Positions 3,392 through 31,755 of a stretch of DNA of 33,908 nt are shown piece by piece. The stretch is taken from the IMG/VR virus record IMGVR_UViG_3300049023_000115, positions 1 to 33,908 of that record. The stretch is one strand, 5' to 3'. The position numbers and the translations under genes were made by a program. The stretch is from a virus (lineage: Duplodnaviria; Caudoviricetes). Under the pieces are notes generated by a model. It did not search any database, was not told the DNA's origin, and worked only from the letters and a program-made list of their open reading frames with translations. The stretch's first letter is position 1. Each line of letters begins with the position of its first letter.

Positions 3392-3802
3392 TTACAGCGA
3401 CACGCCGCTGGGCTGGATGTCGACGTTCAGCGCCGTCGTGGATGTCGCCATGCCGATGAGGACGGAATACTCGCCCGACCCGATGTCCGCGACGGGGCAG
3501 ATACCACCCGGCGTATCGGATAGATAATAACCGACGCCTGCCGTGATGGTCGCGCCGATGGTGATCGAGCCCGACTTGAGAATGGCGATGGGCTGGTTGA
3601 TCGCGCCGCCGTTCAACGCAATGCCACGGGGCGCGCGAGCCGCTGCCGTCGCAGAATTGCTGTCGGCGAGCAGATATTTGCCCGTCGTGCTGTCGCGATA
3701 GACAACCTGCCCGGCGGTGATCGTAGCGCCGGCCGTGCCATGCTCGATGCCATCGGTTGAGCCAGCGACCACATTCGCCGCGGTGATTGTGATATCAGCC
3801 AT
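3392..3802 (-). CDS. Virion structural protein, cement or short-fibre-like (possible beta-tulip fold)
   Basis: AGATITAGQVVY...LADS...GIALN...YYLSDTPGG pattern; rich in small residues; GGAGGA RBS. The fold is inferred. Confidence 0.55.
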   Translation of the reverse strand: MADITITAANVVAGSTDGIEHGTAGATITAGQVVYRDSTTGKYLLADSNSATAAARAPRGIALNGGAINQPIAILKSGSITIGATITAGVGYYLSDTPGGICPVADIGSGEYSVLIGMATSTTALNVDIQPSGVSL

Positions 3803-6919: not shown

Positions 6920-7327
6920 TCAGGCCCCCGGCGCGGTCAGCGTGAAGGTCGAGATGGTGAACGACTGGCCAGCCGCGAAACTGGTATTATCGACGGTCAG
7001 GTCGCCACCGCCGCCGGTCGCCGTCACGGTGCCCTGCCAGTGGCACGTGGTTCCATCCGAGGCGTAGAGCCGGAAGTGCGCCGCCGTGCCCGTAGCGTCG
7101 GCCGAAGCGTCCTGCCACGTCCCGGACTTGGCCTTGGAGCCACCGGATGCCGCCGCCATCCAGTCGGACGGAAGGCTGAGCGTGGCAAGGACCGTGCCGC
7201 TATCCGCAGTGCCGCAATTCGCAGGCGCGGCGCCGGTCCTGATCTTGAGCACCGCCGACGTGCCGATCGCCGTCTCGATCGCATCGAGCAGCGCGTTACG
7301 CACTGCGTCGGAGAATTGAAGGGCCAT
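6920..7327 (-). CDS. Conserved beta-rich virion protein (putative fibre bead subunit)
   Basis: RNALLDAI...LKIRTGAAPA...VLATL...ADATGTAAHFRL...QGTV...GGGDL...GQSFTISTFTLT is a pattern typical of minor phage structural proteins. Confidence 0.65.
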   Translation of the reverse strand: MALQFSDAVRNALLDAIETAIGTSAVLKIRTGAAPANCGTADSGTVLATLSLPSDWMAAASGGSKAKSGTWQDASADATGTAAHFRLYASDGTTCHWQGTVTATGGGGDLTVDNTSFAAGQSFTISTFTLTAPGA

Positions 7328-14443: not shown

Positions 14444-15116
14444 CGTAGCTGCCTTCTATCAATTTTGTGAATGACTTAGGCTGAAGGAAGAAATCAAAAT
14501 CGGCCTTCCACCCTCGCCCGTTCTCGCCGAGAAGGAACGGGCTGCGCGGCACGGCGTCGATTGCTTCAGTGAAGTCCTCAAGCGGGTGCTCTCGGATCAT
14601 GGTCCTCAGCCGCTTCGTTCTGGTCGGGGTGAGTTTCTTGACGATGGGTAGGCCGCGAGGAGCAGCCATCTCGTTCCACGCCTCCACGACGTGTTCCGGC
14701 CTCAAAACAGGATCGGCTGGGGGAGTATCCTCGTTAGAGGATACAGGGGTTAAAGGTTCAAGAACAGTATCCGTGTCCCGTTTTTGGGACTGTTTCGCGG
14801 GAAAATCGGTACTGTTCCGTTTTCGGGACTGTTCCGTTTTCGGGACCGTTGACATCTCCAGGCGATAAACCTTGATTTGGCAGGTTTTCCCAGCCCTCTC
14901 GCCTGTGTCTTGAAGGACGCCATCAGATTCAAGCTGGCTAACGGCTGAAATGATCGTCTTGCGGTTCAGACTGGTAAACTCACACAGCCACGGGATCGAT
15001 GGATAGGCGCAGCCGGTTTCTTCGTTGTGCCTATCCGCATAAGCGAACAGGACGAGTTTTATCGCCGCGCTTTGAGCCCGGTATTTTGATGCCCAAGCGA
15101 GCGCGGAAAAGCTCAT
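14430..15116 (-). CDS. Replication initiator (lambda O-like, N-terminal HTH)
   Basis: KLVLFAYADRHNEETGCAYPSI..L...TSLNRKTI..L; C-terminal FLLGENGRGWKADFDF..KLIEGSY; contains iterons. Confidence 0.88.
   Translation of the reverse strand: MSFSALAWASKYRAQSAAIKLVLFAYADRHNEETGCAYPSIPWLCEFTSLNRKTIISAVSQLESDGVLQDTGERAGKTCQIKVYRLEMSTVPKTEQSRKRNSTDFPAKQSQKRDTDTVLEPLTPVSSNEDTPPADPVLRPEHVVEAWNEMAAPRGLPIVKKLTPTRTKRLRTMIREHPLEDFTEAIDAVPRSPFLLGENGRGWKADFDFFLQPKSFTKLIEGSYDGAR
14774..14846. repeat. Replication origin iterons (17 bp)
   Basis: TGTTCCGTTTTCGGGAC at 14813-14829 and 14830-14846; TGTCCCGTTTTTGGGAC at 14774-14790; degenerate copy between; AT-richer stretch adjacent. Confidence 0.85.
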
Positions 15117-21342: not shown

Positions 21343-22335
21343 ATGGCCAAAGCCAAGCAGCCTTCAGAGATCGTCTCGTACAAGGGTTTCGACAAAGACC
21401 TGAAGTGCCGCGAATATCAATTCGAGATCGGCAAGACTTACACCCATGACGGCGATGTCGAGCAGTGTGCTTCGGGCTTCCACGCCTGCCCTGTCGAGCA
21501 TCATCCGTTCTCGGTGTTTGAGTTCTACCCTCCCGCTGGATCGCGGTTCTGCGAGGTGCGCCAGTCGGGCGCGACAAGCAACGGCGGAACGAAACTGGCT
21601 TCTGCGGTAATCACCATTGGTGTCGAACTGACGATCCACGATCTTGTGAAGCGGGCTTGGGAATATGTCTGGTCGCGCGCGACGAAGAGCGACGAGAACC
21701 ACAGCACCGGGAACTATGGCGCTGCGTCCAGCACCGGGTACCAAGGCGCTGCGTCCAGCACCGGGACCCAAGGCGCTGCGTCCAGCACCGGGTACCAAGG
21801 CGCTGCGTCCAGCACCGGGTACCAAGGCGCTGCGTCCAGCACCGGGTACCAAGGCGCTGCGTCCAGCACCGGGTACCAAGGCGCTGCGTCCAGCACCGGG
21901 GACTATGGCGCTGCGTCCAGCACCGGGAACTATGGCGCTGCGTCCAGCACCGGGTACCAAGGCGCTGCGTCCAGCACCGGGAACCAAGGCGCTGCGTCCA
22001 GCACCGGGTACCAAGGCGCTGCGTCCAGCACCGGGAACTATGGCGCTGCGTCCAGCACCGGGAACCAAGGCGCTGCGTCCAGCACCGGGAACTATGGCGC
22101 TGCGTCCAGCACCGGGAACTATGGCGCTGCGTCCAGCACCGGGTACCAAGGCGCTGCTATGGCCTCTGGCTACGAAGGTCGCGTCATGGGCGCAGATGGC
22201 AATGCCCTGTTCGCAGTCGAGCGCGGCAAGAATTACAAGATCGTCTCCGTCGCCGCCGGCATCGTTGGCCAGGACGGGATCAAGGCGAACGTCTGGTACA
22301 CGGCCCGCAGCGGCAAGCTGGTGGAGGCCGCATGA
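21343..22335 (+). CDS. Phage early protein with conserved N-domain (DUF7666-like) and 9-aa STGxxGAAS repeats
   Basis: YKGFDKDLKCREYQFEIGKTY...C.SGFHAC; 17 repeats; C-terminal GIVGQDGIKANVWY. Confidence 0.85.
   Translation: MAKAKQPSEIVSYKGFDKDLKCREYQFEIGKTYTHDGDVEQCASGFHACPVEHHPFSVFEFYPPAGSRFCEVRQSGATSNGGTKLASAVITIGVELTIHDLVKRAWEYVWSRATKSDENHSTGNYGAASSTGYQGAASSTGTQGAASSTGYQGAASSTGYQGAASSTGYQGAASSTGYQGAASSTGDYGAASSTGNYGAASSTGYQGAASSTGNQGAASSTGYQGAASSTGNYGAASSTGNQGAASSTGNYGAASSTGNYGAASSTGYQGAAMASGYEGRVMGADGNALFAVERGKNYKIVSVAAGIVGQDGIKANVWYTARSGKLVEAA
21703..22161 (+). repeat. 17 x 27-bp coding tandem repeat
   Basis: AGCACCGGG-NNNNNN-GGCGCTGCGTCC; only two codons vary (last unit ends GCTATG). 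Confidence 0.97.
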
Positions 22336-22963: not shown

Positions 22964-23754
22964 TGCAGGAGAATGAGATGGAAATTCTGATCGATGACGC
23001 GCGTGTAGCTGAGGTTGCCAAACTGGGGCTCAAGGCAGGCGGACACAAACGTATCGCCGATGGCATGTGCGCGATGGAAGCCGCCTCGTATATCGCTGGC
23101 GAGCCTTGGTCCGATCATCCCGAATGCGTCTGCCCGGTCATTGCCGCTTTCCTCCGGAATTGGAACGACAGCCTCGACACCGAGGACCGTAACCGGCTGA
23201 TCACGCCGGCCCTGATTGTAAAAACGATCGGAACGCGCGGCTCAAAGGAACTGGAGAAGCGGCGCTCCCTCATGGCTGCGGACTGGCTTATCCGGACCCA
23301 TGCACCCGCATGGCTCAGGCTCGCTAAATTGGACGCGCAGGCCGATCTGATCGCCGGGCTCCCTGAAATTACCGATATGGCGCAATATCCATCTCTCCGC
23401 GCCCCGCTTGAGGCCGTGAGAAAAGATGCGGCCGCCGCATGGGACGCCGCAGGGGACGCCGCATGGGACGCCGCAGGGGACGCCGCATGGGACGCCGCAA
23501 GGGCCGCCGCATGGGACGCCGCATGGGACGCCGCAGGGGACGCCGCATGGGACGCCGCAAGGGCCGCCGCATGGGACGCCGCATGGGACGCCGCAAGGGA
23601 CGCCGCAGGGGACGCCGCATGGGACGCCGCATGGGACGCCGCATGGGACGCCGCAGGGGACGCCCTCAAACCAACGCAAACCCTTCTCCAAGCCAGCGCT
23701 GGCGAACTGATCGAACGCATGTGCGCCGCGACGGAAGAAAAGCTCGCCGCATGA
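22963..23754 (+). CDS. Phage early protein with AWDA-type tetrapeptide repeats
   Basis: CAMEAASYIAGEPWSDHPECVCPVIAAFLRNWND N-domain plus a repeat tract. Confidence 0.8.
   Translation: MQENEMEILIDDARVAEVAKLGLKAGGHKRIADGMCAMEAASYIAGEPWSDHPECVCPVIAAFLRNWNDSLDTEDRNRLITPALIVKTIGTRGSKELEKRRSLMAADWLIRTHAPAWLRLAKLDAQADLIAGLPEITDMAQYPSLRAPLEAVRKDAAAAWDAAGDAAWDAAGDAAWDAARAAAWDAAWDAAGDAAWDAARAAAWDAAWDAARDAAGDAAWDAAWDAAWDAAGDALKPTQTLLQASAGELIERMCAATEEKLAA
23437..23664 (+). repeat. 19 x 12-bp coding tandem repeat
   Basis: GCA[T/G/A]GGG[A/C]CGCC encoding AWDA, AGDA, ARAA or ARDA. Confidence 0.96.
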
Positions 23755-23834: not shown

Positions 23835-24452
23835 ATGACTACGCCGAAGGTCTATGAGGCCATCGCGAAGGTCCAGGCTGAACTTGCGCGGACCGGCATC
23901 TCGAAGGACCGCACGAACAGTCAGCCGGGCGCGAACTACAAGTTCCGCGGCATCGACGACGTGTACAATGTCCTCGCGCCGCTTCTGTCGCAGCACGGGC
24001 TTTGCATCCTGCCCCGGATGCTCAGCCGCGATGTTGTCGAGCGCCGGAGCGCCAAGGGCAACGCTCTGTTCTACGTCACCCTCGAAGCCGAGTTCGATTT
24101 CGTCGCGGTCGCAGACGGTTCCAAGCACACTGTTCGGACCTTCGGCGAGGCGATGGACAGCGGCGACAAGGCAACGAACAAGGCGATGTCTGCCGCCTAC
24201 AAATACGCGGCGTTCCAAGCCTTTGCCATACCCACCGAGGGCGACAACGACGCAGACGCTACGACGCATGAGGTCGCCGCCGCCTTCATCACCGAGGATC
24301 AGGCAGCCAACCTCCAGGCGATGGCCGAAGAGGCCGGCGCGGATATCCCGCGGTTCTGCAAGTACCTCAAGGTCCGCACGCTGTCGGCGATCCCGGCTGC
24401 GCAATACCAGCAGGCGCTGGCCGCGCTCGAAGCAAAAAGGAAAGCAGCGTGA
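23835..24452 (+). CDS. ERF-family single-strand annealing protein
   Basis: YKFRGIDDVYN...GEAMDSGDKATNKAMSAAYKYA..FAIPTEGDNDAD; ATG 23835 with GGAGG RBS. Confidence 0.92.
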   Translation: MTTPKVYEAIAKVQAELARTGISKDRTNSQPGANYKFRGIDDVYNVLAPLLSQHGLCILPRMLSRDVVERRSAKGNALFYVTLEAEFDFVAVADGSKHTVRTFGEAMDSGDKATNKAMSAAYKYAAFQAFAIPTEGDNDADATTHEVAAAFITEDQAANLQAMAEEAGADIPRFCKYLKVRTLSAIPAAQYQQALAALEAKRKAA

Positions 24453-25111
24453 TGCTCCAGCGCACCGATGACTGGATGGCCGCCAGATGCGGGAAAGTGA
24501 CCGCATCGCGCGTCGCTGATGTCATCGCCAAGACCAAATCAGGGCCGAGCGCGAGCCGGGCCAACTATCTCGCCCAGCTCGTCTGCGAGCGGCTGACCGG
24601 CGAGGTGGAGTCATCGTTCGTGAACGCGGCCATGCAGCATGGCATCGACACCGAGGAAGAGGCGCGGATCGCCTATTGCTTCCGGCACGATGTCGATGTG
24701 GCGGAGGTGGGGTTCATCGACCACCCGACCGTCAAGATGTCAGGCGCATCCCCGGATGGGCTCATCGGTGATCTGGGCATGATCGAGATCAAATGCCCGA
24801 ACACATCTACCCATATCGAAACGCTGCTGAGCGGGACGGTGCCAGCCAAGCACATCACACAGATGATGTGGCAGATGGCGTCAACCGGCCGGGGCTGGTG
24901 CGACTTCGCCAGCTATGATCCTCGCGTCCCCGAGGCGATGCGGTTGTTCGTCAAGCGGGTCCACCGCGACGACACGATGATCTCCGATCTCGAGCGCGAG
25001 GTTTCCGGCTTCCTTGGAGAAGTCGAGGACAAGGTTGACCAACTCCGCCGCCGCTTCGACCCCGACTACGCCGGGGCGCAAAAGGTGGTGGATCTTCTGA
25101 GGGCGGGTTGA
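24449..25111 (+). CDS. YqaJ / lambda-exonuclease family protein
   Basis: QRTDDWMAARCGKVTAS, GASPDGL, IEIKCP, QMMWQM. Confidence 0.94.
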   Translation: MMLQRTDDWMAARCGKVTASRVADVIAKTKSGPSASRANYLAQLVCERLTGEVESSFVNAAMQHGIDTEEEARIAYCFRHDVDVAEVGFIDHPTVKMSGASPDGLIGDLGMIEIKCPNTSTHIETLLSGTVPAKHITQMMWQMASTGRGWCDFASYDPRVPEAMRLFVKRVHRDDTMISDLEREVSGFLGEVEDKVDQLRRRFDPDYAGAQKVVDLLRAG

Positions 25112-25578
25112 TGAGCAGTCTTAATCGTGTGCAGTTGATCGGCAATCTCGGGCGCGACCCCGAAAGCCGGTCCTTCCAGAATGGTGGCAAGGTTGTGAAC
25201 CTCAACCTCGCCGTCACCGAGCGCTGGAAAAAGGACGGGGAGACCAAGGAGCGCACCGAATGGATTTCGGTTGCGATCATGAACGAGAATATCGGCTCTA
25301 TCGCCGAACGATATCTCCGCAAGGGATCGAAGGTCTACATCGAGGGCAAGTTCTCCACCCGCAAGTGGAAGGACCAGCAGGGCAACGACCGCTATTCAAC
25401 CGAGGTTGTGCTGCAGGGCTTCGACGGGAAGCTCGTCCTTCTCGACGGCAAGGGCAGCGAGCGCCAGGAACAGCGCGGCGGAGGCGGTTCGGCATACGAT
25501 GCTGATCTGGACGGGGACGACGTTCCTTTCGTTTCGTGCGACCCCCGCCGGGAGAACAGGCGGAAGGTGGCGCTGTAA
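25111..25578 (+). CDS. ssb: Single-stranded DNA-binding protein
   Basis: LNRVQLIGNLGRDPE...YLRKGSKVYIEG...DRYSTEVV...DDVPF. Confidence 0.96.
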   Translation: MSSLNRVQLIGNLGRDPESRSFQNGGKVVNLNLAVTERWKKDGETKERTEWISVAIMNENIGSIAERYLRKGSKVYIEGKFSTRKWKDQQGNDRYSTEVVLQGFDGKLVLLDGKGSERQEQRGGGGSAYDADLDGDDVPFVSCDPRRENRRKVAL

Positions 25579-25581
25579 GCC

Positions 25582-25971
25582 ATGCGCGTCAACGTCGCCC
25601 CTCGCCGCAAGAACTCGCCTCGCCCCGAGGAAAAGAGCGCGCCAACCTACCTGCAATGGCTGCGTGGGCGCGAATGCTTCCTAGACGGGCGGGGCTGCGG
25701 CTGGGGCGATCCTCCGCGCAAAAGCTTCATTGAGGCGGCGCACGTCGATCACGGCGGAGACAAGGGCATGTCCACCAAGGCGAGCGACCGCTTCGCCATC
25801 CCCCTCTGCCAGCGCCACCATGACGAGCAAGGTGGGAAGATCGGGTCTTTCCGCCAGCGCGGTGGCTGGCGCTCGTTCGAGCTGAAATACGGGTTCGACG
25901 CGGTCAAGGCTGCAGCGGCCTATTGGGAGCGCTGGCCCAGCCGGACGAACTGGGAGGCCAAGCATGGCTGA
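25582..25971 (+). CDS. DUF968-like HNH-type nuclease
   Basis: YLQWLRGREC...EAAHV...GMSTKASDRFAIPLCQRHHDEQ. Confidence 0.8.
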   Translation: MRVNVAPRRKNSPRPEEKSAPTYLQWLRGRECFLDGRGCGWGDPPRKSFIEAAHVDHGGDKGMSTKASDRFAIPLCQRHHDEQGGKIGSFRQRGGWRSFELKYGFDAVKAAAAYWERWPSRTNWEAKHG

Positions 25972-26965: not shown

Positions 26966-27148
26966 ATGGGCAAGTTTATGGAAGTTAGTCGCGACACCTA
27001 TTATGCTCAAGCGGCGAATTGCTTGTTCTGTTTGCACATCGGATACACAGCTATATTCTTCGGGATTGGCGCTGGCGGTTACGGGGCAAGACTGGAACTT
27101 TTCACGCCATCGCGGTTGTTCCGCTTTCGCCACAGGATTCCCGCATGA
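26966..27148 (+). CDS. Small hypothetical protein
   Basis: AGGAGG RBS; lower GC. Confidence 0.5.
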   Translation: MGKFMEVSRDTYYAQAANCLFCLHIGYTAIFFGIGAGGYGARLELFTPSRLFRFRHRIPA

Positions 27149-27300
27149 ACTACACCCTATCCACCCATCGCCACGGCGGTCCTAGCAAGGACTGGCTGGA
27201 GCGCAAGCCCATGTACGAGGAGGCTATACCTCTTTCGTTCAAGGTGAAGTGGGCGGGGATTTGGATCTCTGTTGGGATTTTGATGGGGGTGATGTTGTGA
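27145..27300 (+). CDS. Small membrane protein
   Basis: ATGA overlap; C-terminal hydrophobic segment. Confidence 0.5.
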   Translation: MNYTLSTHRHGGPSKDWLERKPMYEEAIPLSFKVKWAGIWISVGILMGVML

Positions 27301-27599
27301 TCAAGATACACGCAATCAACAACGTGTATGCAGACTTGGTTGATCTTTATGGTAGGATCGGCGGGCGCGCAATCGCTAGTCTAACCACGCAGGAACTGAC
27401 AGACGGCTCCTTCTCAGAGCCATTCGTGAGAATGAATCCAGCCGAGGCTCAGGAGCTGGCAGATAGTCTGTGGGCCGCTGGCATTCGACCGTCTCAAGGA
27501 AAGCAATCCGAAGGGGTCACTGCCGCGCAAGCCCGGCACCTCGAAGATATGCGCCAGCTCGCGTTCGCAAAACTCAACGTCGAGAAACCCAATGACTGA
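27297..27599 (+). CDS. Conserved phage hypothetical protein
   Basis: AQELADSLWAAGIRP...HLEDMRQLAF; GTGA overlap. Confidence 0.7.
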   Translation: MIKIHAINNVYADLVDLYGRIGGRAIASLTTQELTDGSFSEPFVRMNPAEAQELADSLWAAGIRPSQGKQSEGVTAAQARHLEDMRQLAFAKLNVEKPND

Positions 27600-27825
27600 C
27601 CTCTCTATCCTGGCGAGCAAGCTGAGTGAGGCGGAGAAGAGCCTCATTATAACTGGGCATGGTGAAAAGATATCGGTTGCCCATCTGAACCAACTTGGGC
27701 TTCTGACGTACGAGCCGATCTATCATTCGGTCCCAGGCCTCGGCCGCAAGAAAATCGGCTACAAGGCTGGATATACCGACCTCGGCCTCTCTCTCCGCTC
27801 TTACTTGAAGGGGATGGAAGAATGA
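27592..27825 (+). CDS. Small hypothetical protein (wHTH-like)
   Basis: KLSEAEK...L..LGL...TDLGLSLRSYL. Confidence 0.6.
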   Translation: MTDLSILASKLSEAEKSLIITGHGEKISVAHLNQLGLLTYEPIYHSVPGLGRKKIGYKAGYTDLGLSLRSYLKGMEE

Positions 27826-28256
27826 CAGACGAGTATTTGGGCGCGTCCTTCGGATCGGGCTCGCGGCCCTTCGGGCTTGAGCCTGCTGCGCAGTCTCAAC
27901 CAGAGGCGCTGATCCCTCGCGCGGGTCTGACGAAACGCGCGGCCGAGTTTGTGCGGATCAATCGGACCTACTCCGTCGTGTCGGGCACGTGGCTGGACAA
28001 GGACGGGAGGAGGCCGAAGGGCGGGCCTGAGACTTGGGCGAAAATGAGCTACCGACTGGATAACGGGCAGCAGTTCACACTCAACGAAGCAGAACTTGCC
28101 GGGCTCAAAGCTATTGGCTTCCGACCTGTGTGGTGGGGCGATCGGTTCCGCCGCGCCGCGTCAGCGATGAGCACCGGAACAGCGAAAGCGCCGCAGGCGG
28201 TTGAGGGGCGAAGCCCTGCCAGCGCGGTGGCGAAGCCAGACGCCCAGGAGCAGTAG
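27822..28256 (+). CDS. Hypothetical protein whose N- and C-termini are encoded by structured inverted elements
   Basis: Open frame coupled upstream by ATGA, spanning both hairpin elements. Confidence 0.6.
   Translation: MTDEYLGASFGSGSRPFGLEPAAQSQPEALIPRAGLTKRAAEFVRINRTYSVVSGTWLDKDGRRPKGGPETWAKMSYRLDNGQQFTLNEAELAGLKAIGFRPVWWGDRFRRAASAMSTGTAKAPQAVEGRSPASAVAKPDAQEQ
27838..27917 (-). repeat. Structured inverted element, left copy (three c-GNA-g hairpins)
   Basis: Minus strand: CTGC-GCA-GCAG, GCCC-GAA-GGGC, TCC-GAA-GGA, ending CGCCCA. Confidence 0.8.
28163..28246 (+). repeat. Structured inverted element, right copy (three c-GNA-g hairpins)
   Basis: Plus strand: CGCC-GCA-GGCG, GGGC-GAA-GCCC, TGGC-GAA-GCCA, ending CGCCCA. 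Confidence 0.8.
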
Positions 28257-28257
28257 C

Positions 28258-28671
28258 ATGACCACTAAAGAGACAGCCGATATAGTGGGGTGGCTCCATG
28301 TCCGCAGCCAATGCACCTATCACCACGAAGCTGAGATCGTAGGAACGCGCTCCGGGCTTGAGGCTCTCCAGTGCGCGGTCGAAGAGGCGTTGGGCACTGG
28401 CACCGGAACCGCCGCCGCGTGCGCGTCAGATGGCGAGGGCTATGCGCTCCGCGTCAGGCGCACATCGACAATAGCAGGTCTCGGGCGTCCTACATACCTT
28501 GATGAGATCGGGCGTGAATTAGCCGACATGGAGCGGAACCATCTCGTTCACACAAGTCGGGCTGTGGAGAAGCAGGCGAAAGAAGCGTTAGAGGCTCTTC
28601 GCTGGTGCCGGGTGAACGGAAACCCGCATCTCCCCACCCCTCCAGTAGAGGGGGAGAACCGTGGGAGCTGA
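28258..28671 (+). CDS. Hypothetical protein
   Basis: AGGAG RBS; H.EAEIVGTRSGLEAL...ASDGEGY. Confidence 0.7.
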   Translation: MTTKETADIVGWLHVRSQCTYHHEAEIVGTRSGLEALQCAVEEALGTGTGTAAACASDGEGYALRVRRTSTIAGLGRPTYLDEIGRELADMERNHLVHTSRAVEKQAKEALEALRWCRVNGNPHLPTPPVEGENRGS

Positions 28672-28987
28672 GCTGCTGACAGCGGACGAGGCGGCCGCGC
28701 GGCTGCACGTATGCGAGCGGACCTTGCGCAAACTGCGGAAGGAGGGCTTGATCCTCTATGTCGCCGTCACCGACCGGAAGTTCCTCTACCGGCCTGAGGA
28801 CTGCGACGCCTATCTGGAATCGCGCCTTCGCAAGGATGAACCGTGTCCGTCTACAAAACCGACAAGTCGCCGTATTGGCAATACGACTTTCAGCGCAAGA
28901 AGCAGCGGTTTCATGGCAGCACGGGCTGCACGTCGAAGCGCGACGCAGAAGCCTTCGAGGCCCGCCTCAAGCGAGAGGTCGCGCTAG
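28661..28987 (+). CDS. Excisionase (MerR-like HTH)
   Basis: LLTADEAAARLHVCERTLRKLRKEG.I.Y...YRPED...YL; overlaps the integrase start. Confidence 0.85.
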   Translation: MGAELLTADEAAARLHVCERTLRKLRKEGLILYVAVTDRKFLYRPEDCDAYLESRLRKDEPCPSTKPTSRRIGNTTFSARSSGFMAARAARRSATQKPSRPASSERSR

Positions 28988-29967
28988 GCCATGAGGCAAA
29001 GCGGCCGATCACCCTTGACGCCGCCTGCCAGGCCTATTGGAAGGACAAGGGCCAGCACGAGAGCAGTTCGACCACGACCGATTACCAGCTCGCCAATCTG
29101 TGCGAGGGCATCGGGGCCAATCGCTTGCTAAGCTCGATCGGCACCGAAGATTTCCGGCGCTACATCGCCAAGCGCCGCGCGACGGTGAGCAACGCCAGCG
29201 TCAATCGCGAATGGCAACTGGCCCGCCGGGTCTGGAAGCACGCTGCGGCCGCCGGGTACGATCTTCCGATCCCAGGAACCCCCGACGCGATCGACTGGAG
29301 CAAGCTGCGCCTGGACGAGCCGAAGGAGCGTGTCCGCGAGCTTACAGCCGATGAGGAAAAGCGGCTGTTCGAGAAGCTTCCCGAAAGCCTCAAACCAGTC
29401 GTGGAGTTCGCCGCGCTGTCCGGGCAGCGCCGCTCCGCGGTGATAGGGCTCCTTTGGGACAAGGTGGATCTATCCGGCCCGCGCGCGACGATCGGGCTCA
29501 AAGGGGGAGGGGAGCACACCTTCCCTCTTACACCCCGGCTCGTCGAGATCATCGAGGCGCAGCCGGTGGTTGAGGACTGCCCGTTCGTGTTCACCTATGC
29601 CTGTGAGCGGCCGAGCCCGCCCCGGAAGGATCGGCCCCGGCGCTACAAGGGCCAGCGCTATCCGTTCAGCAAGCAGGGCTGGATGCGCAAGTGGCGCAAG
29701 GCCCTTGCCGACGCCAAGATCACCAACTTCCGCTTCCACGATCTGAGGCACACGCGGGGGACGCGCATCCTCCGCAGCACCGGCAACCTCAAGACCGTCC
29801 AGAAGCTCCTGGGACATACGGACATCGCCACAACAGCCCGCTACGCGCACGCACTGGAGGACGATATCCGCGACGCGATGCTTGCAGGCGAATCCCGGAA
29901 TAGTACCGGACAGGCATTGACAAAGAAGCGCCAATCCCGCAGAAAAGCTAGTGAAACGGAGCAATAG
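28843..29967 (+). CDS. Tyrosine integrase
   Basis: Catalytic R (SGQRRS), K (LKGG), HxxR (FHDLRHT), H (LLGH), Y (TARYAH). Confidence 0.97.
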   Translation: MSVYKTDKSPYWQYDFQRKKQRFHGSTGCTSKRDAEAFEARLKREVALGHEAKRPITLDAACQAYWKDKGQHESSSTTTDYQLANLCEGIGANRLLSSIGTEDFRRYIAKRRATVSNASVNREWQLARRVWKHAAAAGYDLPIPGTPDAIDWSKLRLDEPKERVRELTADEEKRLFEKLPESLKPVVEFAALSGQRRSAVIGLLWDKVDLSGPRATIGLKGGGEHTFPLTPRLVEIIEAQPVVEDCPFVFTYACERPSPPRKDRPRRYKGQRYPFSKQGWMRKWRKALADAKITNFRFHDLRHTRGTRILRSTGNLKTVQKLLGHTDIATTARYAHALEDDIRDAMLAGESRNSTGQALTKKRQSRRKASETEQ

Positions 29968-29973
29968 AATGCA

Positions 29974-30023
<50 letters not shown>

Positions 30024-30921: not shown

Positions 30922-31755
30922 CTTCTCGCAGCGCTGGAGTTGCGAGCGCGCGTGGGCTGGACGGTCGATCTGGTGGATCCGCTGCCAACCGGACAGGTTG
31001 ATGCTAGTGAATTCGTGGCGCGGATCCGGCCCGAGACGGCATTCGTGTCGCTGATGCAGGCGAACAACGAGACGGGCGTGATCCAGCCGGTGGCGAAGAT
31101 TGGCCGCGCAATTCGTCGGATCGCTCCCGGCGCACTGTTCCACGTCGACGCAACGCAGGTCCCCGGCCGCCTCGCTTCATCGTTCGACGACGACCTGGCT
31201 GACGTCGATTTCCTGTCGATCTCGGCCCACAAGTTTCATGGTCCAAAGGGCATCGGCGCCTTGTTTGTTGCGGATGGCCGGGTTCCGGCGCTGATCCACG
31301 GCAGCCAGGAATCGGGGCAGCGTGGCGGAACGCTCAACACGGCGGGTGCAGCGGGCCTGGCGGCTGCTGCGAAGCTCGCGCGGATCCGAATCGGGGAGAT
31401 GGACCGAGTCCGCGCGCTTCGTGACAGCTTCGAGCAGGGCTTGCGCGAGCAGATCGGAAGCGTTCAGATCCTCGGCGACGAGGCGGAGCGGCTGCCCAAC
31501 ACATCCGCTTTCTCCTTGCCCGGCATTGATGCTCTGGAAGTGGTGGACGCGCTCGCGCGGGACGGCATCGTGATCGCCTCGGGCGCGGCCTGTGCGAGCG
31601 GCGCTACAGCGCCCTCGCATGTCCTTACGGCCATGGGACTCGACTATGCCCATGCCAAGAGAGCGCTGCGGGTCAGCTTGTCGCGCCTGACCACCGAAGT
31701 GGAGATCGAAGCAGTCATCGAGCGAATCTGCGACGTCGCCCGCGTTCGAGCCTGA
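30904..31755 (+). pseudogene. 5'-truncated cysteine desulfurase (NifS/IscS/DndA family)
   Basis: MQANNETG, FHVDATQ, SAHKFHGPKGIGAL and SGAAC...PSHVLTAMG are present; the N-terminal YLD..ATT, FTSG.TE and EH motifs are absent. Confidence 0.85.

Follow-up and report, generated by a model that had tools for sequence, protein, structure and literature searches.

Outward-facing folded DNA elements around an exchangeable phage gene belong to a widespread, strand-specific family and may mark the start of complementary strands

What are two inverted, similarly structured DNA elements doing at the two ends of a single small phage gene? The window, meaning the whole stretch of 33,908 nucleotides that was analysed, is a 33.9-kb virus record; its left part carries the head and tail genes, and its right part is an early arm. 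Based on PHROG and Pfam matches, the early arm encodes Erf, exonuclease, SSB, NinB, Lar, small genes without known function, excisionase and integrase. Related loci in Sphingomonas and its kin indicate that the host is probably alphaproteobacterial. Soil and rhizosphere sequencing runs contain DNA near-identical to the window, and three RNA runs match it, each with only 5-18% of words. The two elements lie just inside the ends of a 144-codon gene and both direct their 3' end out of it. Neither Pfam nor PHROG assigned this ORF to a family, and the cargo between the elements had no homologues among proteins of 30-78 aa. The relevant features are:

23844 to 25578, plus strand: recombination module of Erf-like annealing protein, exonuclease and SSB (PHROG matches)
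27780 to 27837, no strand assigned: left shared block with the end of the upstream gene, ribosome-binding site and start codon, common to both alleles
27822 to 28256, plus strand: 144-aa ORF, in frame through both folds, its start overlapping the stop of the upstream gene
27838 to 27922, minus strand: left fold, P1 formed by 27922-27918 with 27845-27841, 62.6 bits to covariance model R1
27923 to 28157, plus strand: cargo of about 78 codons (235 bp), swapped for other sequence in a co-occurring allele
28158 to 28246, plus strand: right fold with the architecture of the left one and a degenerate inner stem, 65.8 bits to model R1
28257 to 28294, no strand assigned: right shared block (start of the next gene), where the other allele rejoins; joints 27922>28257 and 28294>28630
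28661 to 29967, plus strand: excisionase and tyrosine integrase of a temperate phage, the sole site-specific recombinase found in the window

Several other features of the window were observed. Tandem repeats are found in two ORFs, specifically, a 27-nt repeat at 21621-22268 in a 363-aa ORF of the early arm (phrog_4433, collagen/tail-fibre-like repeats) and a 12-nt repeat of about 20 or more units at 23370-23712 in a 263-aa ORF directly upstream of erf. An HTH_36 replication-type gene contains 3-4 direct repeats of about 17-24 nt (14774-14853), possibly iterons or an origin. A 14-nt word in an HNH-like gene (25852-25865) equals part of the 3' strand of P2 in the right element; it was missed by the model and is probably due to chance. 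Translations of 29973-30020, 3' of the integrase, resemble the 3' part of a tRNA and this is likely an att site; ARAGORN called no whole tRNA. Host-type genes (aminotransferase V, HNH) come after the putative att site.

The layout initially proposed for both elements, with GCA, GAA and GAA loops in this order, linkers of 6, 11 and 8 nt, a common CGCCCA end and compensatory changes in the stems, was confirmed in the sequence in all points. The supposed linkers turned out to pair with the 5' part of each element, forming two long-range stems called P1 (5 bp) and P2 (interrupted by A.G mismatches). The folds therefore extend to 27922 and from 28158, so the exchangeable cargo, put at about 245 bp by the sequence-only reading, measures 235 bp (27923-28157), whereas its exchangeability is upheld by the presence of another allele in soil populations. 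The left fold consists of P1, P2, an inner stem with the GCA hairpin, two GAA hairpins and a CCA tail. GNA mini-hairpins are an established stable structure of single-stranded DNA. Three c-GNA-g hairpins within 60 nt occur in exactly two clusters in the window, which are the two elements; among 200 Markov resamples, one contained a single such cluster and none contained two. A chance origin of the folds can be ruled out by this resampling together with the pairing census of pattern matches given below. It should be noted that the DNA folding energy of the whole elements is unremarkable (z of -1.9 for the left and -0.1 for the right) and does not set them apart from shuffles. A terminator reading was discarded, the 3' flank being A-rich and devoid of a U tract.

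IMG/VR was scanned with a pattern that left the pairing free, which gave 120 matches at 119 loci. The last hairpin was fully paired in 39 of these matches, with three of its four pairs formed in only one. Covariance model R1 is based on 32 of 36 distinct copies, four short or odd variants being left out, and 92.4% of the cells of its alignment pair compared with 68.6% in shuffles. The scan filter had picked P1 positions 8-9 and one P2 pair, which are thus circular as evidence; pair 16-81, which it had not picked, is formed in every one of the 32 sequences and takes four forms. Across the alignment, three A.G mismatches are almost without variation. A census of 142 distinct members, drawn from the best 150 of 164 matches, showed GNA in 326 of 521 triloops, and the model pairs comprise 3582 Watson-Crick, 48 G.T and 27 A.C pairs. 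The GNA triloops and the rarity of G.T pairs fit DNA better than RNA. Each copy is predicted to form a branched structure of about 85 bases in single-stranded DNA. Conservation at the protein level was ruled out, as the end peptides vary freely while the pairs persist and most plasmid copies lie in unannotated DNA. Comparison of the window cassette with GenBank phages by blastn yielded chance matches only, and a pattern for the subtype of the window, mostly matching by chance, returned 119 loci, of which 80 were searched and gave seven model hits in four loci.

Model R1 identified further copies with covarying stems, namely 1-13 copies per record in 36 related phage records, all of which had been picked for holding a copy. 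Pair statistics for tailed phages are based on 135 copies, after removal of eight small ssDNA-phage records and two duplicated stretches. Strand alternates between 79 of 103 neighbouring copies. Outward (minus-plus) pairs within 900 nt number 37, compared with a mean of 14.5 for randomly assigned strands, and none of 5000 randomizations gave as many; a single ORF spans both ends in 21 of the 37. Inverted pairs around unrelated cargo, mostly single genes, had been anticipated from the window and are indeed the rule here. The 3' end of a copy coincides with a gene start (antisense) or gene end (sense) for 74 of 135 copies; flipping the copies lowers this to 17 of 135, and among random places it was the case for 417 of 2653, the ORF rules used for this count being crude. 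When flanks were compared between phages, only the outer sequence was shared in 16 comparisons, only the inner in one and both in one. Three loci (L161, L168 and L175) combine an identical pair of outer blocks with differing folds and three unrelated cargos, and two others (L148 and L159) share flanks around unrelated cargo. Alleles of one slot differ in the elements themselves. Of the two end peptides of the window's 144-aa ORF, only the left one recurs in the otherwise unrelated proteins P0002 and P0004 and only the right one in P0003. Directly 3' of the folds, near-identical blocks of 25-60 nt are found, and such blocks also mark many fold-free gene borders in related phages. Outward pairs around single genes, one ORF running through both ends and the same flanks around unrelated cargo would all be expected if these were attC- or HUH-like folded-ssDNA sites at which an enzyme supplied in trans excises, inserts or inverts the cargo.

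The soil populations allow this explanation to be weighed at the slot itself. In four of eight soil runs, a contig carrying another allele departs from the window sequence at 27922, where the left P1 has its inner foot, and returns to it at 28257, outside the right fold; a fifth run shows a loose end at 27922. The depth of the other-allele contig is close to that of the window allele in all four runs (17 vs 19, 11 vs 10, 78 vs 84 and 21 vs 21). Neighbouring slots that lack folds are replaced in the same way (26968-27144, 27252-27588, 27641-27780 by 123 other letters and 28294-28630 by 227). Altogether, five consecutive gene slots at 26968-28669 have alternative alleles in soil populations, joined at shared blocks of 30-110 nt with or without a fold. 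This looks like the outcome of two related phages sharing short blocks, and it shows that the slots are exchangeable, not that shuffling is ongoing. Patterns from the window's own flanks found no match in viral contigs or metagenomes, and a shorter flank pattern returned 83 loci but no true copy and no named record of the other allele at the slot. For site-specific recombination, the departure at precisely this foot of the left P1 is fitting, but the rejoining point outside the right fold, the equal replacement of fold-free neighbours and the differences between elements of one slot are not. No inversion, circle or empty-site joint was listed in the eight runs, which were available as contigs that drop rare variants. 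The Y1 HUH transposase (Y1_Tnp) was found in 0 of 16 carrier phages and in none of the window ORFs scanned, a result that concerns enzymes in cis and not a host enzyme in trans, and attC-type core and inverse-core ends occur in 0 of 142 members. Further, the alternating strands do not form a direct array as in integrons and no integron integrase is encoded among the window ORFs. The sequence-only reading was right that no cognate enzyme is evident in the window, where only the phage excisionase and integrase were found, but the recombination or transposition sites it had proposed, and with them an enzyme-driven cassette system, were not supported. We consider site-specific recombination clearly unlikely, also in view of replicons that carry single or same-strand copies.

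All eight small ssDNA-phage records (seven inovirus-like and one microvirus) contain one main copy on the gene-sense strand; in the microvirus it is located between the capsid gene and the next gene. A second scan returned 121 loci. An inovirus or microvirus marker is present in 93, and the element is found on the marker's (gene-sense) strand in 92, corresponding to 56 distinct sequences vs one. Many of the 92 loci are near-identical Pf prophages, and three are records that had already come up in the first scan. The sole ssDNA-phage-like locus with the opposite orientation (L428) could be misjoined or contain a different type of element. In a Pf4-type prophage, the element is situated at the end of PA0719. 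None of six reference inoviruses (Pf1, Pf3, Cf1c, RSS1, RSM1 and M13) contains it, and Pf1 has about 180 nt of unrelated sequence where Pf4-type phages carry the element, which is therefore dispensable or replaceable. This Pf1 segment (about 7085-7270, compared with 3630-3800 of a Pf4-type locus, L176) is AT-rich and represents a candidate functional replacement.

Whole plasmids (five records) carry seven copies, all seven in leading regions and on the strand that serves as template for the neighbouring run of genes. In F-like plasmids this is the predicted transferred strand (T-strand), just as the gene-sense strand is the one packaged by filamentous phages. The identity of the packaged virion strand and of the plasmid T-strand is here taken from established knowledge, and for three of the plasmids the T-strand is the one we presume. 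The F plasmid contains two copies in its leading region, at 58090-58176 and 63478-63564, beside Frpo1 and Frpo2. They lie about 90 nt outside the published ssiD fragment, within the block duplicated at Frpo1 and Frpo2, and the duplicates are 95.5% identical in the element and 87.3% in the ssiD part. At a query coverage of at least 80%, the F-type copy is found in 3757 of 72,556 plasmid records. Three other loci (L187, L195 and L206) have copies on the template strand upstream of ArdA/ArdC genes. GTDB loci (n = 26) fall into two groups, prophage-like pairs and runs of copies on one strand that neighbour relaxase, ArdA, ArdC, Toprim or YspA-like genes, and several adjoin transposase, defence or metabolic genes without belonging to a clear class. 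Marine proteobacterial chromosomes (G040, G039, G041; L186, L202-L204, L209) likewise contain several islands in which 2-3 copies follow one another on one strand, frequently next to genes of the YspA/SLOG family. The Frpo* candidates 2, 6 and 7 of PMC11541004 include the element or its start, and the accessible part of that paper does not comment on it. In the literature outside subscription journals and bioRxiv supplements, no description of the fold as ssDNA or as a cassette end was found. The single copies of ssDNA phages and the same-strand copies of plasmid leading regions speak against recombination or transposition sites. We conclude that the element is a real, widespread and strand-specific fold with, in tailed phages, exchangeable cargo.

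The sequence-only reading could not assign the element to a named family, which is too strong a statement, as its core is that of Flavo-1 (RF01705), a motif filed in Rfam as an RNA and described by Weinberg 2010 (PMC2864571) from Bacteroidetes chromosomes, where it occurs in many copies. According to the alignment in the supplement of PMC2864571, both share a 5' GCG-NN-AG-S-GAT, a 3' AGC-S-CG and A.G mismatches. The window copies keep this core without the GAAG word that follows it in Flavo-1 and, unlike Flavo-1, have three GNA hairpins; Flavo-1 has one long inner stem, and its model stops short of the last hairpin and of the P1 3' strand. The element family, unlike Flavo-1, resides mostly in Proteobacteria, on their phages, plasmids and islands. 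Scanning the window region with Rfam gave no relevant match and the window copies no Flavo-1 hit, the Flavo-1 model did not hit F or Pf4, and the best family member scored 32.5 bits, below the gathering threshold of 42. A Flavo-1 member published in the supplement, on Bacteroides plasmid p5482, is detected by R1 with a score of 27.5 bits and keeps P1, P2 and the last hairpin. The same plasmid (L419) holds a second Flavo-1-type copy at 31046-31132, which precedes an ArdC-like gene, lies on the template strand and is absent among the Flavo-1 rows examined in the supplement. Comparison with Rfam, REP and attC thus revealed only sub-threshold kinship to the Flavo-1 core and no REP or attC match. 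Judged by sequence, the element is a variant of the Flavo-1 kind, though not a member by Rfam score.

Core identity with Flavo-1 raises the question of whether the fold functions as a structured RNA, either an sRNA or a cis-element, as Rfam files it. This appears very improbable: the two window copies occupy different strands of a single ORF, those of plasmids are found on the template strand, and the triloops are GNA with no excess of G.T pairs. In addition, Flavo-1 hits in F. psychrophilum lie sense, antisense or outside transcribed regions in the data accessible in PMC9723704. Flavo-1 also bears on a different possibility, namely a selfish miniature repeat of the REP, MITE or RPE type. Such a repeat would be copied in trans, and its in-frame insertions at gene ends would be tolerated with no benefit to the carrier. 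The supplement of PMC2864571 places about 95 Flavo-1 copies on one chromosome (NC_009613.1), where identical sets suggest recent spread. On the F. psychrophilum chromosome, at least 87 copies, some of them identical, show no replichore strand bias (52 of 87; 162 of 300 shuffles were as good), based on 87 of 99 listed places; of the remaining twelve, three belong to other motifs and the last nine were left out. This result and the in-frame location within proteins are consistent with a selfish repeat, but the strict strand rule in ssDNA phages (92 of 93), the confinement of whole-plasmid copies to leading regions and the extensive compensatory change are not. No target duplication was seen in the window, and a REP-type guide tetranucleotide at the hairpin foot near an end is present in only 15 and 12 of 142 members. 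We regard a selfish origin as quite improbable. The missing replichore bias of Flavo-1 in F. psychrophilum also argues against a general priming role.

Inoviruses, the microvirus and relaxase-transferred plasmids share a single strand that needs to be converted by the host, and a host-read start signal would be the simplest function common to them. As the Rep and relaxase families of the carrier replicons are unrelated to one another, the reader would seem to be provided by the host. We hypothesize, with about even confidence, that the fold is a host-read signal for starting the complementary strand. A host protein, with primase, the PriA primosome and RNA polymerase as candidates, would read the folded single-stranded copy and begin the complementary strand. 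In tailed phages, an outward pair would equip both strands of the gene with a 3'-terminal fold, just inside the shared blocks of 25-60 nt. The exonuclease/Erf/SSB module is the presumed source of single-stranded DNA and of exchange at short blocks: it would turn the region single-stranded and the gene could be swapped by annealing at the shared blocks. The fold would then let the host copy back over the non-homologous cargo, whichever strand survives, and genes carrying a fold would spread more easily. This rescue of resected, annealed cargo in dsDNA phages is the more speculative part, and as fold-free genes exchange equally well, any benefit of the fold to a cassette is only presumed.

Conversely, the fold may protect or stall instead of prime. 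As a shield it would guard entering or resected DNA from nucleases or SOS sensing, and GNA mini-hairpins are nuclease-resistant, which counts toward this role. In the stalling form, polymerase would stop at the 3' foot, where the shared blocks directly follow, and the nascent end, carrying such a block, would switch template and thereby swap the cargo. The strand rule would be equal to that of the priming explanation, and the leading-region hairpin ssp2 is a demonstrated roadblock in the accessible part of 10.64898/2026.01.09.698686. However, a roadblock would hamper an inovirus or microvirus, the near-invariance of bases within irregular stems hints at a specific contact with protein, and slots without folds exchange too. 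We regard protection or stalling as unlikely.

If the fold is indeed a host-read start signal, an Rfam motif without a function since 2010 would gain one as DNA. A wider form of this explanation, which we consider possible but less likely than not, is that of an ancient folded-DNA signal, with Flavo-1 as the Bacteroidetes form, that generally starts second strands in filamentous phages, microviruses and conjugative leading regions; outward pairs would then be self-priming cassette ends, enabling recombinase-free shuffling via host replication and phage annealing proteins. Two open questions are touched by this, the priming of incoming plasmid and filamentous-phage DNA and the swapping of single accessory genes by phages. 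Replicons tractable in the laboratory carry the element, namely F in its leading region and Pf4-type phages, and so do thousands of F-like plasmid records.

Known single-strand initiation (ssi) signals, specifically, the n'-pas of phiX174 and ColE1 read by PriA, the G4 signal read by DnaG, F ssiD/Frpo read by RNA polymerase and the M13 minus origin, are likewise folded ssDNA on the entering strand. The microvirus element (L139) directly follows the capsid gene, as does the annotated origin of G4, and the F element is co-duplicated with Frpo1/2, yet lies outside the ssiD fragment. In sequence, the family is distinct from these signals: with R1, the best E value against phiX174, G4 and ColE1 was 0.27, which is no match, and neither their origin regions nor F ssiD nor the M13 intergenic region contain the P2 core. 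The n'-pas heptamer occurs in only 25 of 142 members, and both window copies lack it, Frpo-type -35 and -10 hexamers occur in one and none of 142 with no sigma-70 boxes, and a primase triplet is not conserved in the flanks (34 and 42 of 142). Early conversion at Frpo/ssp1 loci is rifampicin-sensitive and is explained by promoter transcripts in the accessible part of 10.64898/2026.01.09.698686. With integron attC cassettes, IS200/IS605 ends and REP/RAYT elements, too, single genes that can be exchanged are bordered by folded ssDNA, but the element is inverted instead of direct, has a multi-branch fold and lacks their core motifs. RSF1010 ssiA and ssiB, as presented in the accessible part of PMC8567376, are likewise two inverted priming-type structures; they serve a plasmid primase at one origin, whereas the element occurs in numerous pairs within a genome, each enclosing accessory sequence, and a cognate primase was not found. 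The boundary sequences of mosaic phages in the accessible part of PMC3029335 are plain homology and resemble the near-identical 25-60-nt blocks between variable genes. Compared with these, the folds represent an extra part on the cargo side that is conserved in structure and variable in sequence.
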